Shown: one piece after another, positions 11,650 through 18,019 of the stretch
How the letters are laid out: every line of letters begins with the position of its first letter
Numbering within the stretch: position 1 is the stretch's first letter
From: Planctomycetota bacterium
GTDB taxonomy: Bacteria; Planctomycetota; PLA2; JAEUHO01
Direction of reading: 5' to 3'
Length of the DNA stretch: 64,000 bases
Assembly: GCA_965223505.1 (NCBI GenBank)
Contig: CBDCWP010000039.1
Coordinates: forward strand, 1-64,000
Notes under the pieces: generated by a model
What the model was told of the DNA's origin: nothing
What the model saw: the letters and a program-made list of their open reading frames with translations, nothing else
Databases searched by the model: none
Translations under genes and position numbers: made by a program

Positions 11650-13067
11650 TCCGCAGCCTTTGCGTCGCCGCGATCGCCGGCGCGGTGGTGATGGCCCTCG
11701 AGATCCTGGCGAGCCGCTGGCTCTCGCCGGCGTACGGCTTCACGCTGACGACCTGGTCGTTGCTCATCGCGACGACGTTGCTGGCGGGCAGCCTCGGCGC
11801 GGCCTTCGGCGCCCTGTTCAGCCGCGGCGCGTCATGGGTGCGCGTGAAGGGGTTGTTGCTCGTCGCCGGTGTTTGGGCCGGGCTTTGTGCGTTCCTCGCG
11901 CCGTTCGCGGTCGACGCGTTCCTCGACCGTCCGGTGCTCGAGGGCGCGCTGCTGGCGACATTGATCATCCTGCCCGTTCCCGTGATCTGCCTCGGCGCCG
12001 TCGTTCCGCTACTCGGTCAACTGCGTGCCGGTGCGTCCGAGCCCGGCCGGCTCGTGGGACTGCTGATCGCCGCCTCCACCGTCGGCAGCCTCGTCGGTAC
12101 CCTCGCGACCGCGCTGTGGTCGATCCCCACGTTCGGGTTGCGCATGAGCGCCGTCTTCGCGTCGATGCTGCTCATCGGCCCCGGTGTTCTGCTCGAAGGC
12201 AAGCGCAGCAGCGTCGCCGGCGTCGCGGCCGGCGCCGCATTGGTCCTGGCCCACTTGTTGGCGCCGCATCCCGCCGATGACGTCGAGCTGACGCGCAACA
12301 CGCCGTACGGACGACTCACCATCGAGCGAACACCCTCCGGACGCGGCATCTTCGTCGACGGCATTGCCCAAGCGCGCGAGACCGCTCACGTTCGGGGGCC
12401 GGGGGCGTTGATCGTCGCGCGGCAGTACGTGGAGCTGCTCCCGTACATGCGCCCGTCGGGCCGCACGGCGCTCAACATCGGGCTCGGCACCGGGATCGTT
12501 CCGAGCGCCTTGGGTGCGTACGAGATCGACGTCGAGAGTGTCGACGTCAATCCGGTGCTCGTGGACGTCGTGCGGCAGCAGTTCGGGTTCGAGGGCATCG
12601 TCCACGTCGGCGACGGACGCGCCGTCTGGCGGCGGATGGACAGGCGCTTCGACTTCGTCGTGCTCGACGCGTTCCAAGGCGAGGTGTTGCCCGGCCACCT
12701 GGTCACGAGCGAGGCGTTTCAGGAGCTGCGCGAGCGACTCACCCCCAATGGGATCGTGTGCTTGCATCTCATCGGTCGGCCGCGACATGCGGTGACGAGC
12801 GCGCTCGCCAAGGCGATGGACGTGTTCGTCAACGTGCGCTGCGCGCAGTCCGGTCTCGGCGACGAGCTGCAGGATCTGTTCCTCTTCGCATCCGACGGCC
12901 CGCTGAACGTGCCGCCGGCGGAGGAGCTTCGGCGCGCGGGCTGGCTCGGCAACGAGTGGTTCGAGCCGCAGCTCGACGACGTCGCCTTGATCACCGACGA
13001 CCGAAACCCCATCGACGTGCTCAATGAGCCGTTGGGTCGCGAGGTGCGTCTCCGTTCGCGTCGGTAG
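11646..13067 (+). CDS. Fused membrane / spermidine-synthase-like SAM-binding protein
   Basis: GTG overlaps the upstream stop; TM N-half (MALEILASR, STVGSLVGT); IGLGTG, GDGR, VLDAF and ITDDRNP motifs. Confidence 0.85.
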   Translation: MIRSLCVAAIAGAVVMALEILASRWLSPAYGFTLTTWSLLIATTLLAGSLGAAFGALFSRGASWVRVKGLLLVAGVWAGLCAFLAPFAVDAFLDRPVLEGALLATLIILPVPVICLGAVVPLLGQLRAGASEPGRLVGLLIAASTVGSLVGTLATALWSIPTFGLRMSAVFASMLLIGPGVLLEGKRSSVAGVAAGAALVLAHLLAPHPADDVELTRNTPYGRLTIERTPSGRGIFVDGIAQARETAHVRGPGALIVARQYVELLPYMRPSGRTALNIGLGTGIVPSALGAYEIDVESVDVNPVLVDVVRQQFGFEGIVHVGDGRAVWRRMDRRFDFVVLDAFQGEVLPGHLVTSEAFQELRERLTPNGIVCLHLIGRPRHAVTSALAKAMDVFVNVRCAQSGLGDELQDLFLFASDGPLNVPPAEELRRAGWLGNEWFEPQLDDVALITDDRNPIDVLNEPLGREVRLRSRR

Positions 13068-14610
13068 GCGCGTCGACGATACCGATCCAGGGCACGGCGA
13101 ACAGCAACGCGCCGGCCAGCGCGTAGCCCAGCGCGGCTTCCGGCGCGACGTTGATGCCGAGCTCTAGCGACGTGTCCGTCTCCGTCCAACGCCATCCGTG
13201 CATGAGGCCGAAGAACGACATCGCGGCGCCGGCCCAACACCAGCACGCCGCGAGGCGGAAGCGCCGCTCGATGATGGCGACGGCGGCGGCGGCGAGCAGC
13301 ATCGCGGTGAAGATGCCGCCTTCGGCCAGGGAGAAGACGCCTTCGAAGTGCACACCGACCCTCTCGAGGGCGGGGCCCAAGCTCTCGTCGAACGTCGCGC
13401 CGGCGCTCGCCGCGCCGCGTTTCAGCATGAACGCCCCCCACGCGGCGACGCCCGGCAAGAGCCCGATCACGACGGCCGGCGCGTGTGCGCGCGGCGTCGC
13501 TTGGAACGCCTGCGCCGTGATGACGATCGAGATCCACAACACGATCGCCATGCCGGCCTCGATCGGGACGGCCCACGCGATCCACCCGACCGTGCCGGTC
13601 AGGCAGATGACCGTCATGAACGCGCCGTTGAGCCACGAGTAACCGAGCCGCGCGCCGAGCGCCTTCCAGCCGGGGTGGCCGATGTAGATCGTCGTGGGGA
13701 AACACGAGCCGAAGAGGGATCCGACGATGGTGCCGATGCCGTTCGCCGCCAGCGACGGACGCGTCGCGAACCGGTCGCCGGCCGCCTCGGCGCTGTCGAG
13801 GTTCTGCAGCGATCCGAGGAGGTTGAACAGTCCCATCGCGAAGATCACGGAGAAGTACTGCGGGACCGCGAACTGGAATGCGTCCCACAGATCGCCCGGC
13901 ACCGGCGTCGGCGCGTAGACGCCCACCGGCGCCTGCGGGTCCGCGCCGGGTGCCAGACCGGTGGCCCAGCAGATGGCGGCACCCAGCGCGACCGCCACGG
14001 CGCCGCCCGGGATGCCGCCACGAAAGCGCACGCCGCCGAAGTAGACGATGCACACGACGGCGAAGGTCGGCAGGCCGACCAACGGGTGCTCGAACGAACG
14101 AAACAGGAAGTCGAGCGAGATGAAGGTCAGCGCGATGCCGGACAGGGTGCTCAGCAACGCCGCGCGAGGGACGTAGCGCCGCAGCCGGTCGACGACGAAC
14201 GCGCCGAGCAGCTCGATCACGCCGGAGCCGAAGCAGGCGACCAAGCCCGCCTGCCATGCCATGCGCGCGGCGGTCTCGGCGTCATGTTCGACAGCAAGCT
14301 GCTGCTTCGCGGGCAGCATGACCAGGAAGACGAACACGAACAGACTGACGGTGTTGACGCCGTACGGAATGGCGCAGACGTCATGGCGGCTCTCGCGTCG
14401 CGCCAACCGCATGCCCTGCCAGGCGTAGAAGACGTTACCGACCAGCAAGCTCAAGCCGACCGCGGGGAGAATCGTCGCGAAGACGAGCGCGTCGGGGAAC
14501 TGCAGCACGCCCTTGCAGAGCGCGACGATCACCAGCAGCTGGATGAGATTGTCCAGCGCCAGGCCGAAGAAGCCGTCGAGGTCCCCGCGTACGAACCAGC
14601 GTGCGTGCAC
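13021..14610 (-). CDS. NCS2/AzgA-like nucleobase permease
   Basis: GDLDGFFGLALDNL, PYGVNTVS and FPTTIYIGHPGWKALGAR motifs; many TMs. Confidence 0.85.
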   Translation of the reverse strand: MHARWFVRGDLDGFFGLALDNLIQLLVIVALCKGVLQFPDALVFATILPAVGLSLLVGNVFYAWQGMRLARRESRHDVCAIPYGVNTVSLFVFVFLVMLPAKQQLAVEHDAETAARMAWQAGLVACFGSGVIELLGAFVVDRLRRYVPRAALLSTLSGIALTFISLDFLFRSFEHPLVGLPTFAVVCIVYFGGVRFRGGIPGGAVAVALGAAICWATGLAPGADPQAPVGVYAPTPVPGDLWDAFQFAVPQYFSVIFAMGLFNLLGSLQNLDSAEAAGDRFATRPSLAANGIGTIVGSLFGSCFPTTIYIGHPGWKALGARLGYSWLNGAFMTVICLTGTVGWIAWAVPIEAGMAIVLWISIVITAQAFQATPRAHAPAVVIGLLPGVAAWGAFMLKRGAASAGATFDESLGPALERVGVHFEGVFSLAEGGIFTAMLLAAAAVAIIERRFRLAACWCWAGAAMSFFGLMHGWRWTETDTSLELGINVAPEAALGYALAGALLFAVPWIGIVDAPTDANGDAPRDPTAH

Positions 14611-14661
14611 GCGCGGGACCTTATCAGAAGCGATGTCTTCGGGAACGAGCGCTTCTGCGGC

Positions 14662-15027
14662 CTACCGTCCGATCGAGAAGCAGCCGGGCACGCCGGCCGC
14701 GACGGGCACGCCTCAGGTGCCACCGGAACAGACGCTCTTCACCGCCGCTTGCGGATCGATGGCGCGCTCGACTGGAAGAACGATGCTGCGCGCCGGTTCC
14801 GGCCGCGCGGCGGCACGAATCGAGGTCGTCCTCGGCTTCGCGGCAACGGCGCGGGCGGGCGCCGGTGGTGCGAACGACGTCACGGGCTCGTTGTCGAAGA
14901 CGTGCGTGGTCGACGTGCGTGCGTGGGTGTCGTGCGCGACGGCGTCCGACGCCGCGGTCGACACGGACGTCGCACAGGCGGTGAATGCGGACGCCGCGAT
15001 GAACGTACCAATCCAGCGGATGATCAT
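14662..15027 (-). CDS. Small lipoprotein A, candidate selenoprotein (…VCSGGT-U-GVPVAAGVPGCFSIGR)
   Basis: ATG 15027, lipobox-like FTAC, Pro/Ala/Arg-rich linker, UGA at 14713-14715, then 16 codons to TAG that are conserved with the neighbouring gene. Confidence 0.72.
14680..14700 (-). promoter_or_regulatory. Candidate bacterial SECIS hairpin A
   Basis: GCGGCCGG-CGUGC-CCGGCUGC, an 8-bp stem starting 12 nt after the UGA, with GU in the loop. Confidence 0.65.
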
Positions 15028-15219
15028 GATCTTCTCTCGCAATTTTCGTGTTGTCGGTTCGCCGTCGAGGCGCGAATCGTCGAGGATTGGTGAGCTCGTT
15101 CTCGAGGTCACGTGCGCTCGCGTCAGGAGCATCCGCAAACGTGCGACTTGGACGACGCGGGCAGTCCCAATCCGTCGAACTTCGTCGGGGCCCTCATTCG
15201 GGCGACTCTCGTCGCGGTG

Positions 15220-15753
15220 CTAGTTGCGCGTGGTGAAGCAGTCGGGAACCCCGACCGCGCTCGGTACGCCTCAGGTCCCGCTTGGACAGCAGTCGCGGAA
15301 GAGATCCACGCGCATCGGCCGGCACGGGCGCGGCACGCACCGCGGCGGGGGCGGAGGCGCGACCCTGCGCGCGGCGGGCGGCGCGGTGCGGCGAAGCGGC
15401 TTCGCGCAGATCGTCGGTGCGCGGCGCGAGATGACGCGCGGCCCCGGCTCCGTGACCACCATCGAACCTGTGCGAACCAACGGCCTCGGCAGGTTGGACG
15501 ACGTCGCGGCGGTCGATCGTGCGCACGGCACGTGCCGGGTGACCGGAGCCGTGAGGGTGAGGCGGGACCCGTAACCGGTTACGCTCGGCGGCGGCAGCGC
15601 TTGCTTGCTGTTCGACGGCACTGCGATCGAGGTCTGCCCGGATGCCGTGTCCCACGTGCCGCGATTCCAGGTACCGTCGTCCACGACGGGCTGCGTCGCG
15701 CAGCCCATCAGAAATAGCGCCGCAACCATGGCGCCGGCCAGGCGAATGCCCAT
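15220..15753 (-). CDS. Small lipoprotein B, candidate selenoprotein (…DCCPSGT-U-GVPSAVGVPDCFTTRN)
   Basis: AAGGAAG RBS, ATG 15753, lipobox LMGC, Pro/Arg-rich linker, UGA at 15271-15273, then 16 codons to TAG. Confidence 0.72.
15238..15258 (-). promoter_or_regulatory. Candidate bacterial SECIS hairpin B
   Basis: GCGGUCGG-GGUUC-CCGACUGC, starting 12 nt after the UGA; a U-A pair replaces the C-G pair of hairpin A. Confidence 0.65.
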
Positions 15754-16132
15754 GCGTACTTCCTTCCGTGCCCGGCCGGTCCCTAGTCGACCAGGCGATC
15801 TCACGAGTCCCTCACGTTCTGTGAACGAGACCGGAATACGCATCGACCGTTTGCCCCCTCGGAGTTGAATCGTTCGGCCTTGTAACCGTCCACGTTCGCC
15901 TGAATGTCACCGCACGCCCGTGGTCTCGACCGACGGGCGCCGGCTGCCGACTCTCCGTGGGGTCGGCTGACCGGGCTCCTTCCTTGAACCGAACCGTCCG
16001 CTTCAAGTGCCTTGGGGACAGGGGCTTGTGGTCTCCGCGCGCCCCAACGAACCCCGCATCGGACGAAAAACCGCCGGCGCCGCGGAGGGTCGAGACGCCG
16101 GGCGGGCACTACATACTGGAGACCCTGAGAGC

Positions 16133-18019
16133 ATGAACCCGCCCCGCGCCCCGACCGCCGACCTGCTGATGGAGCACAGCGGCTTCCTGCGTGGGCTGGC
16201 CCGCAGTCTCGTGCGGGACGAGCAACAAGCCGAGGACGTCGTGCAGGAGACGTATCTCGCCGTGTTACGCAAGCCGCCGCCTCCGCACGTGCGGCTCAAG
16301 GCGTGGCTGGCCGGGATCGCGCGCAACCTCGCCTTGCGGACCGTGCGCCGCGAGACGCGGCTGAAGCAGCGCGAGCAGCGCGCTTCCGAGCGCGAATCGG
16401 CGTTGCCCTCGTCGGACGACGTCGTGGAGCGCCTGGAGATCCAGCAGCGACTGGCCGCCGCGGTCATGTCGCTCGACGAGCCGGGCCGCTCCGCCATCGT
16501 CTTCCGGTACTTCGACGGCCTGACGCCGACGCAGATCGCTACGCTGCTGAAGCAGCCGGTGCGCACGATCGAGACGCGACTTCGGCGCGCACGCCGGCGG
16601 CTACGCGCGTCCCTGGATACGAGCTACGGGAGCCGGGCGACGTGGCAGGCCGCGTTGGTGCCCGTTGCCGGCTTCGGGTTGGAGAGCGCCGCCGTCGGCA
16701 AGGCGGCTGGAACGCTGACGACGACGGGAACGAGCACCGCAACGGGTGCGGGCTCTGCCGTCGTCGCGGGAGTCATCATGAGTACCAAACTGATCGCCGG
16801 CGCCGCCGTCGTCGTTGCCGCCGCCGGCGCCTTCGTCGCGGGATGGCACTTGAGGCCGGCGCCCCAGGACACGACCTCCACGGCCGACGCGTCAGGCGTC
16901 GAGAACGAGGACGAGCCCGGGCTCGGGACCGACGCGATGCTGCTCGCCAACGTTCGAGCCGAGCTCGAGACGGAGCGGGAAGCGCACGGAGCGACGAAGT
17001 CCGAGATGGAGTCGCTCGCGACGCGCGTGAAGGAGCTCGAAGCGCAGGTGGCCGCAGCGGCGGCGGAAGGCGGCGGCACGCCCGAGAAGCTGAAGCCCGG
17101 TACGACGTGGTACACGCCGAACGAGCACGCGGAAGCGATCGAGGGCATCGACTGGAATCAAACGGGCGAGGCCATCGTCAAGTTGAACCCGCTGCTCGTG
17201 AAGCTGGCGGAAGCGCTCGAGGCGGGGAGGGAATTCAAAGAGCTCGCGGAGCTCTCGCGCTGGAACACGCCGCTGGCGGTCAACGCGCTGAACGCGTCGC
17301 GCAAGGGCGTGCCGGGCACCGGCGTCAACGGCGCGTTCACCCATCCGTCCATCATGGCGAACATGGTGCACGCCGCGCTCGTTCAGGGCGGCAAGCCGCT
17401 CGACGCGGGCCAGGAGAAGAACCTGCGCGCGATCGCGGACCGGTTCCTCGGCGCGGACGAGCATCGATTGCGCTCGTACGACGAGACGACCTTCGGGCTG
17501 AAGAAGCTCATCGACGAGGCGGCGCTCAAGGCGCGCCTGTTCGAGGACATCGACGCGTTGCTGACGGAGGAGCAGCGCGAGATCCTGCATCCGGCGTCCG
17601 TACGCGGCCGCTGCGGCATCGACCTCTTCTCGAGCGGGATCGTCTGGTACACGCTCTATCGACCGGCCCGATTCGACACGCCCGAGAAGCTCGCTTCGCA
17701 CCTGGCCTCGAACGTGATGACGCACTTCCAGCTCGCGGCCGAGCTCAGGCCGGTCGTGGACGAGCTCGCCGCGGACTACGCCGCTTCGTTCCCGTCCGGA
17801 TATCTGGATGCCGAGCCGGACCCGCTGACCAGGGCGCAGCTGACGAATCCCAGTGCGATCGGCCAGCTCTTCGTGCCCGTCGATCGGCCGCGCATCGCCG
17901 CGGAGCAACAGCTGGCTTTCTACACGGCGCTCCACGACCGTCTCCCTGCGGGATCACCCGCGGCGCACAAGGTGCGTGCCGAGGTCGGGTTCGTCCTGCC
18001 CGTGAAGTGGACGCCGTAG
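16133..18019 (+). CDS. ECF sigma-70 factor with TM and long C-terminal extension
   Basis: AEDVVQETYL, AWLAGIARN and region 4 (IATLLKQPVRTIETRLRRAR), followed by a TM helix, a coiled coil and a large extra domain. Confidence 0.85.
   Translation: MNPPRAPTADLLMEHSGFLRGLARSLVRDEQQAEDVVQETYLAVLRKPPPPHVRLKAWLAGIARNLALRTVRRETRLKQREQRASERESALPSSDDVVERLEIQQRLAAAVMSLDEPGRSAIVFRYFDGLTPTQIATLLKQPVRTIETRLRRARRRLRASLDTSYGSRATWQAALVPVAGFGLESAAVGKAAGTLTTTGTSTATGAGSAVVAGVIMSTKLIAGAAVVVAAAGAFVAGWHLRPAPQDTTSTADASGVENEDEPGLGTDAMLLANVRAELETEREAHGATKSEMESLATRVKELEAQVAAAAAEGGGTPEKLKPGTTWYTPNEHAEAIEGIDWNQTGEAIVKLNPLLVKLAEALEAGREFKELAELSRWNTPLAVNALNASRKGVPGTGVNGAFTHPSIMANMVHAALVQGGKPLDAGQEKNLRAIADRFLGADEHRLRSYDETTFGLKKLIDEAALKARLFEDIDALLTEEQREILHPASVRGRCGIDLFSSGIVWYTLYRPARFDTPEKLASHLASNVMTHFQLAAELRPVVDELAADYAASFPSGYLDAEPDPLTRAQLTNPSAIGQLFVPVDRPRIAAEQQLAFYTALHDRLPAGSPAAHKVRAEVGFVLPVKWTP

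Follow-up and report, generated by a model that had tools for sequence, protein, structure and literature searches.

A tandem pair of putative selenocysteine-containing lipoproteins from a small, lineage-restricted family in a Planctomycetota genome

Layout and coding signal of the tandem genes

The window analysed here comprises the first 64,000 nucleotides of contig CBDCWP010000039.1 from a Planctomycetota bacterium (assembly GCA_965223505.1) and includes, between positions 14,662 and 15,753, two small minus-strand genes, B and A, each carrying an in-frame UGA codon. Our reading, to which we give a probability of roughly 0.8, is that the two genes are tandemly arranged paralogs within a small family of secreted lipoproteins, restricted in lineage, and that their UGA is decoded as selenocysteine (Sec, U). 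The features of the pair are listed below (SECIS, selenocysteine insertion sequence; A4, the alignment of 12 family proteins introduced further on).

15220..15753, minus strand: gene B, putative lipoprotein precursor, 177 codons including Sec161, then TAG
15700..15702, minus strand: gene B, lipobox Cys18 codon (L-M-G-C), the Cys being invariant across the 12 proteins of A4
15262..15288, minus strand: gene B, module C-P-S-G-T-U-G-V-P
15271..15273, minus strand: gene B, UGA putatively read as Sec, on the invariant Cys column of A4
15238..15258, minus strand: gene B, SECIS-type hairpin (9 bp stem, loop GUU, -15.1 kcal/mol)
14662..15027, minus strand: gene A, putative lipoprotein precursor, 121 codons including Sec105, then TAG
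14974..14976, minus strand: gene A, lipobox Cys18 codon (F-T-A-C)
14704..14730, minus strand: gene A, module C-S-G-G-T-U-G-V-P
14713..14715, minus strand: gene A, UGA putatively read as Sec, on the invariant Cys column of A4
14680..14700, minus strand: gene A, SECIS-type hairpin (8 bp stem, loop CGUGC, -14.3 kcal/mol)

A preliminary description of the locus had both open reading frames (ORFs) stopping at TGA right after C-x-x-G-T and continuing for exactly 16 codons to TAG, which is confirmed as written: ORF B runs from the ATG at 15753 to the TGA at 15273-15271, directly after C-P-S-G-T, and through 16 sense codons to the TAG at 15222-15220; ORF A runs from the ATG at 15027 to the TGA at 14715-14713, directly after C-S-G-G-T, and through 16 sense codons to the TAG at 14664-14662. 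The two post-UGA tails end in ...C-F-S-I-G-R and ...C-F-T-T-R-N. Shine-Dalgarno-like runs precede the starts of both genes, that of gene B (GGAAGGAAG) lying 7 nt ahead of the ATG. Lipoprotein signals consist of a short basic N-terminus, a hydrophobic stretch and a lipobox ending in Cys; by inspection, A (M-I-I-R...F-T-A-C) and B (M-G-I-R...L-M-G-C) appear to follow this rule, most of their homologs having L-A-G-C.

The GC content of third codon positions (GC3) is 0.86 (B) and 0.83 (A) upstream of the UGA and 0.875 (B) and 0.94 (A) in the tails, compared with 0.88-0.91 in the neighbouring genes of this 67% GC genome. By GC3 the frame of A and B is coding, tails included, with values typical for genes of the source genome. 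What was reported earlier for the tails is all present: 9 identities among the 16 post-UGA residues (G, V, P, A, G, V, P, C, F), with synonymous differences in four of these codons (GTG/GTA, CCC/CCG, GGC/GGG, GTG/GTT). In the G-V-P lying between the UGA and the hairpin stem, only two third positions, both synonymous, distinguish A from B. The earlier view that the two proteins show no obvious similarity beyond the tail needs some correction: BLASTP finds weak similarity in their signal peptides (9/21 identical) and over 49 residues spanning the motif (20/49, E 2e-7), which take in about 30 residues ahead of it. By their sequences A and B look like diverged tandem duplicates (paralogs).

In a six-frame translation of all 44 contigs of the assembly (5,154,780 bases), T-U-G-V-P was found at the A and B sites only. 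The same letters at TGA and tail occur in contigs of two further samples from the same single study (a contig of run X3 spanning 15025-15299 and one of run X4 spanning 14640-14790, with no differing letter in either); the TGAs are thus not a one-off assembly error.

SECIS-type hairpins downstream of the UGA codons

The hairpin downstream of each in-frame UGA that the preliminary description had invoked is present in both genes. The perfect stem starts 12 nt past the UGA in A and B, and the loop starts at 20 nt (A) or 21 nt (B). The bSECIS model published in PMC13188914 allows 3-9 nt in the loop and 4-16 bp in the stem, and asks for a G within the first two positions of the loop, a distance of 16-37 nt between UGA and loop, and a minimum free energy of at most -7.5 kcal/mol. 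The hairpins of A and B lie within all these limits, as does that of a third family member on contig C41 of the same assembly (7 bp, loop AGUU, 21 nt from the UGA, -10.9 kcal/mol; see below); the loop of A falls outside the sub-pattern, marked 'mostly' in the model, that has a closing N1-N2 pair. The other Sec genes of the source genome have stems of 6-8 bp starting 11-21 nt past the UGA, with loops GUC, GUU, GGUC or GGU, and the hairpins of A and B resemble these SECIS elements.

Hairpins with GU in the loop and a stem of 7 bp or more followed 11 of 964 ordinary TGA stops (1.1%; long high-GC3 ORFs of the source genome ending in TGA) compared with 9 of 21 candidate Sec sites, and those of 8 bp or more followed 5 of the 964; the looser published criteria, taken together with a stem of 8 bp or more, admitted 37 of 1,869 frames ending in TGA, all these figures being indicative. 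Within the family, a hairpin of at least 7 bp follows 3/3 modules with TGA and 0/15 modules with TGY, a 6-bp one being found after 2 of the 15; by our own arithmetic the exact test puts this association at 1 in 816, the rows being non-independent.

One pair of the stem shifts from C-G to U-A between the two genes, at the cost of Ala to Val and Gly to Asp. This compensatory pair changes two amino acids, and therefore part of the conservation of the tail is conservation of RNA and not of protein. The terminator scan called neither hairpin; as the T run is absent, they are not terminator-like. A search of positions 14400-16000 against Rfam gave nothing below E 1.3.

Selenocysteine machinery and further candidate selenoproteins of the source genome

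The complete set of Sec genes looked for was found in the source assembly: a tRNA-Sec (69.2 bits; called SeC with anticodon TCA by ARAGORN), selA (507 bits) adjoining selD (338 bits), and selB (336 bits). The selD gene itself carries one in-frame TGA. Within the bacterial family, 27 of 29 genomes have selA. In-frame TGA codons with high-GC3 coding sequence on either side occur at 82 sites, many of them in UxxC/CxxU contexts (about 20). They lie scattered over many of the contigs, one at C39:143159, past the end of the 64-kb window, and others on C10, C30 and C44. When 11 such ORFs were read through, 9 matched Pfam at E <= 1e-4: AhpC-TSA/Redoxin (four), CMD (two), DUF3179 (one) and Thioredoxin_7 (two, just under the cut-off); the Pfam match spans the UGA in L119, where coordinates were checked. 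The source genome uses Sec widely.

A lipoprotein family with cysteine at the UGA position

The best foreign match of a profile made from the two tails, among 29 genomes of the bacterial family, was a gene of genome G022 (21.8 bits, E 0.0012) encoding a 127-aa lipoprotein that ends in ...C-P-G-G-V-C-G-V-P-G-A-A-D-C-C-P-G-G-V-C-G-I-P-V-A-G-Y. This protein as query retrieved three metagenome-derived proteins (68, 59 and 46% identity); profile searches added family genes in G004 and G044, and pattern searches added genes in G001, G003 and G008 and a partial one in G042. The complete Cys-form relatives are small lipoproteins of 117-189 aa with a Pro/Ala/Arg-rich linker and, at the C-terminus, one to three modules C-P-G-G-x-C-G-[I/V]-P, the module that bears out the earlier placing of the UGA at the second Cys of a CxxGxC-type motif. 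Run over 40 genomes of the order, the strict module pattern matched 11 times, in 7 genomes that all belong to the bacterial family of the window; its reversed control gave 0. Counting that of the source genome, the family spans six genera, in addition to the metagenome-derived proteins.

Alignment A4 contains 12 proteins: A, B, the C41 member and nine Cys forms (P0007-P0010 and the genes from G004, G044, G001, G003 and G008). Its columns invariant in 12/12 proteins are the lipobox Cys, the Gly two before the Cys/Sec, the Cys/Sec itself, and the Gly and Pro that follow. All three UGAs of the source genome align with the invariant Cys column, where the homologs carry Cys and none ends. The three codons past each of the three UGAs encode G-[V/I]-P, matching the G and P of 9/9 Cys forms, and this invariance would be without explanation if translation stopped at the UGA. 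The coding-type conservation claimed earlier for the sequence past the UGA thus stands for G-[V/I]-P, the part of the tail fixed by the SECIS hairpin being set aside. The additional C-F in the tails of A and B corresponds to the place where a degenerate second module has its first Cys, as in the ...E-D-C-F-P-G-G-S-C... of P0010.

The third Sec member lies outside the window, on the minus strand of contig C41 (14727..14242), with a GTG start at 14727 behind AGGAGG and the lipobox A-A-G-C. It would end in ...N-P-L-Q-F-I-F-N-A-G-G-C-G-P-G-G-U-G-I-P-N, with the UGA at 14259-14257, the TAG at 14244-14242 and four codons between Sec and stop; its SECIS-type hairpin sits past the TAG, outside the ORF, and is followed by a terminator-like hairpin. 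In G022, G004 and G044 the Cys form is flanked by a divergent secreted protein (~410-460 aa) and a mutY-like gene, and the C41 member with its UGA (source genome, G000) occupies the equivalent locus, which we take to be the ancestral locus of the family. An idea that module and neighbour had been fused was dropped: no relationship could be detected between the secreted protein of the syntenic locus and the module-bearing thioredoxin_7-like proteins (E 0.27). The candidate family first seen as a tandem pair is larger than that pair, taking in the C41 paralog and Cys forms in related genera.

Neither A nor B matched any family of Pfam or NCBIfam at E <= 1, and the Cys forms gave nothing but signal-peptide-level noise in these libraries. 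Among 41 relatives a strict 42-nt tail pattern matched only the source genome itself, and a loose module pattern run over 401 genomes of the phylum gave noise outside the bacterial family. A word-indexed search returned only the truncated forms of the queries themselves (A tail, 1 of 1 candidates; whole B, 1 of 627). A HMMER search of the two-row tail profile against 1.84 billion representative proteins gave 3 matches at E <= 0.001, one of which is the truncated form of B, the other two being repeat proteins. P0005, a repeat protein of 531 aa, has four ~100-residue repeats, each with E-I-C-P-G/D-G-T-C-G-F, like the first seven residues of the module. Literature searches found no published description of the lipoprotein family; the word 'lipoprotein' has 0 occurrences in the main text of the BSepDB paper, and in its supplementary text, which is possibly incomplete as available, 'lipoprotein', 'Cys-rich', 'cysteine-rich' and 'metallothionein' have 0 occurrences. 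The proposal of a candidate new selenoprotein family is upheld, with no Pfam or NCBIfam model and a Sec reading that is well supported by the sequences.

Possible roles of the C-x4-U loop

In the mechanism that we propose, the hairpin, with its loop 20-21 nt past the UGA, would recruit SelB with Sec-tRNA, the UGA would be read as Sec, and translation would go on for 16 codons (A, B) or 4 codons (C41 member) to the TAG. The mature protein would be exported and lipid-anchored outside the cytoplasmic membrane, where a flexible Pro/Ala/Arg-rich tether would present the six-residue C-x4-U loop. An AlphaFold2 model made on A4 (pTM 0.17, mean pLDDT 61.5), in which the only helix is the signal peptide (residues 3-13), is consistent with a disordered tether. 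The loop would then cycle between selenol/thiol and selenenylsulfide, as a mobile redox arm or a scavenger in the envelope. The third Cys of the Cys/Sec/Cys tip suggested in the preliminary description is not family-wide, the C41 member ending four residues past Sec.

Redox cycling of the loop appears the most likely of the functional options, at slightly less than even odds. It is favoured because Sec replaces one Cys of a close pair, because the genome invests heavily in exported Sec redoxins, and because in G013 and G021 the module comes after thioredoxin_7-like domains, weak ones that at 18-20 bits fall short of the Pfam cut-off of 27.

The same genes, with the same Sec decoding, might instead chelate soft metals (Cu(I), Hg, Cd, Zn, As) without redox cycling, as metallothionein-like periplasmic lipoproteins for detoxification, storage or hand-over. 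This would suit the Cys forms of G001, G004 and G022, which are extremely Cys-rich: three consecutive C-C-P-G-G-N-C-G-I-P modules with 12 Cys within the last 42 residues in G001, runs of CC pairs behind the lipobox in G004, and repeated C-K-P-x-C-K-P-x-C-N-P in G022 and G004. No fold is predicted, as in apo-metallothioneins, and SaoC, SaoX, SaoB and MerT provide a precedent for Sec/Cys in proposed metal-handling lipoproteins and binding proteins (bioRxiv 10.1101/2022.07.06.499078). However, no metal-resistance or transport gene adjoins any family locus examined, and A and the C41 member have few further Cys. Most known Sec residues, moreover, are redox-catalytic, which also counts against metal chelation; overall we consider it an unlikely role, though the chief alternative to redox cycling.

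A further idea, which we rate as quite doubtful, is that C-P-G-G-x-[C/U]-G-[V/I]-P is a portable, so far undescribed mini-module specific to this bacterial family, grafted onto unrelated envelope proteins. It may then act as a covalent handle, through selenenylsulfide/disulfide cross-links or the hand-over of metal or selenium between envelope components, and the Sec versions would be faster-reacting upgrades.

Four loci outside the lipoproteins carry related motifs. A C-x-G/D-G-x-C-G-V-P unit lies 24 residues before the end of a secretin (L110 in G017; Pfam Secretin, 122 bits), and such units lie mid-protein in L086 (G013) and L090 (G021), proteins of ~500 aa with the weak thioredoxin_7-like domains at their N-termini. 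The long ORF L094 (G043:C35, minus strand) ends at a TGA, at 1509-1511 of the locus, inside C-G-P-G-G-U-G-V-P, a nonapeptide identical to that of the C41 member except for V in place of I; a 6-bp hairpin with loop GUCA lies ~30 nt downstream, and the 87 codons that come after the TGA find their match in the C-terminal portion of tape-measure proteins of phage tails (phrog_10093, E 7.7e-8). For L094 one may think of Sec in a prophage tape-measure protein, of a disrupted gene, or of coincidence.

Weighing the selenocysteine reading

The alternative for the UGA codons themselves is that they are ordinary stops, so that A and B end in ...G-T, their likeness on the 3' side being that of an untranslated hairpin (terminator, attenuator or repeat element) copied along with the genes in the tandem duplication. 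UGA is indeed the normal stop in this genome, as the 964 long high-GC3 ORFs illustrate; much of the conserved tail is hairpin, and the database gene calls for A and B (P0003, P0004) end at the UGA. On the other hand, the G-[V/I]-P after all three UGAs matches residues invariant in every Cys form; the G-V-P of A and B, which lies ahead of the hairpin, varies only synonymously; both tails are open to an aligned TAG although their last four codons have diverged; the hairpins lack a T run and have the SECIS spacing seen elsewhere in the genome; and the TGY orthologs are without hairpins of at least 7 bp. We regard ordinary termination as highly improbable. That A and B are chance open frames is barely tenable and close to refuted by A4: GC-rich DNA does yield long spurious ORFs on both strands of the window, and the pair has no Pfam or NCBIfam match, but the GC3 periodicity falls in the correct frame, Shine-Dalgarno-like runs and apparent lipoprotein signal peptides stand at both starts, and homologs of like architecture exist in six genera and among metagenome-derived proteins.

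Several points weigh against our interpretation. Support for selenium incorporation, translation and expression is sequence-based, and among the listed RNA runs none carried the A/B stretch. The three Sec forms all come from one metagenome-type assembly (92% complete), and A and B, being paralogous, are not independent witnesses. The family is small, with Cys forms in five other genera of a single bacterial family (7 other genomes carrying modules on small lipoproteins) and three metagenome-derived proteins. The criteria for the background rate of hairpins were set after the hairpins had been seen. Over the 12 post-UGA codons compared, A and B show 1 difference at first, 3 at second and 4 at third codon positions, and these counts, unconditioned on identical residues, are alone no proof of coding selection. 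The tail pattern T-[U/C]-G-V-P-x3-G-V-P-x-C matched 8 loci in genome contigs and 5 in metagenome contigs, no real member among them; once translated, all were rejected as chance, whether they lay in a wrong frame, at the end of a BBE-type enzyme or in an alternative frame of a true gene, the pattern being blind to the family because the second G-V-P that it demands occurs in A and B only. For the presumed redox role, the partial link to thioredoxin-like domains comes from the sub-cut-off Pfam matches, and the neighbouring genes differ among family loci and give no functional clue.

Against these points, the computation establishes the gene structure, the Sec machinery, the fit to SECIS, the pairing of Cys with Sec, and the conservation past the UGA. 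From this sequence evidence, Sec decoding of the family's UGAs is in our judgement very probable.

Neighbouring genes in the window

Two genes flank the pair:

13021..14610, minus strand: membrane protein gene, 529 aa, starting 51 nt past the TAG of gene A
16007..18019, plus strand: extracytoplasmic function (ECF) sigma factor gene, divergent to gene B, given for context only

The 529-aa gene is possibly co-transcribed with A. Its multi-pass product has no match in Pfam, NCBIfam or the PDB, and its neighbours in the Protein Atlas have either no name or the automatic one of 'NCS2 family permease' or permease. Among the 39 other genomes of the order, two (G001 and G044) have homologs with 74% identity, and both homologs are without such a lipoprotein upstream, so a conserved link between permease and lipoprotein was dropped. 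The ECF-type sigma factor has regions 2 and 4 in residues 54-201 and a C-terminal extension of ~470 residues without Pfam match. The neighbours in the window include an ECF sigma factor, a permease and, in addition, a fused gene resembling a major facilitator superfamily (MFS) transporter and spermidine synthase.

Comparison with known systems

The nearest analogue is SaoC (CD2366 family, CC-COOH/CU-COOH), from the SAO locus of Clostridioides difficile and other anaerobes, as described in bioRxiv 10.1101/2022.07.06.499078. According to that text, SaoC proteins are, like A and B, small (mean 158 aa), mostly bear lipoprotein signals, as A and B would, had no Pfam or NCBIfam family when described, and carry a C-terminal Cys/Sec motif with interchange of Cys and Sec among species; as in the C41 member, the SECIS (7 bp, loop GGU, in SaoC) can sit past the end of the ORF. 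SaoC differs in its terminal CC/CU dipeptide, in contrast to the C-x4-U followed by G-[V/I]-P of A and B, and in its conserved nine-gene ABC-transport/organometallic neighbourhood in Firmicutes-type anaerobes, which is not found at the family loci of this high-GC lineage. The two families share no sequence similarity (0 NCBIfam matches at E <= 1).

The exported thioredoxin-fold UxxC selenoproteins of the same genome (TlpA-like and AhpC-TSA/Redoxin) share with A and B the export, predicted for the latter, a Sec with a nearby Cys, and the type and distance of the SECIS. They are, however, folded enzymes of 150-450 aa with U-x-x-C and clear Pfam matches; A and B have no Pfam match at E <= 1, no predicted fold and the four-residue spacing of C-x4-U, and are not thioredoxin-fold UxxC/CxxU selenoproteins.

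In animal thioredoxin reductase a flexible C-terminal redox arm, G-C-U-G, forms a selenenylsulfide and shuttles electrons. The role proposed for A and B would be similar in placing Sec near Cys on a flexible C-terminal extension. Thioredoxin reductase is nevertheless a eukaryotic flavoenzyme with adjacent C-U and a SECIS in the 3' untranslated region, whereas A and B have no enzyme domain in the polypeptide.

KCU-star peptides (NF033934) and proteins with CUAEP/CCAEP tails are further short lineage-restricted Sec motifs near the C-terminus with no assigned function; they differ from A and B, which have no NCBIfam match, in their CU dipeptide and their other lineages.

Implications

The BSepDB paper gives ~111 families and subfamilies in the catalogues of bacterial selenoproteins, almost all of them folded redox enzymes. 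If our interpretation is true, A, B and their relatives add to these a tiny, unfolded, lipid-anchored family in which nothing is conserved but a six-residue Cys...Sec loop. The novelty would lie in the family itself and in its design, an unfolded lipoprotein with a minimal loop of this kind, the mechanism of Sec decoding being textbook. In databases the genes are cut short, the recorded gene calls ending at the UGA. The family would offer an example of the replacement of Cys by Sec across all paralogs in one genome, and of an RNA element, the SECIS, dictating part of a protein sequence; it would also combine, in one family, SECIS elements within the ORF (A and B) and beyond it (the C41 member).

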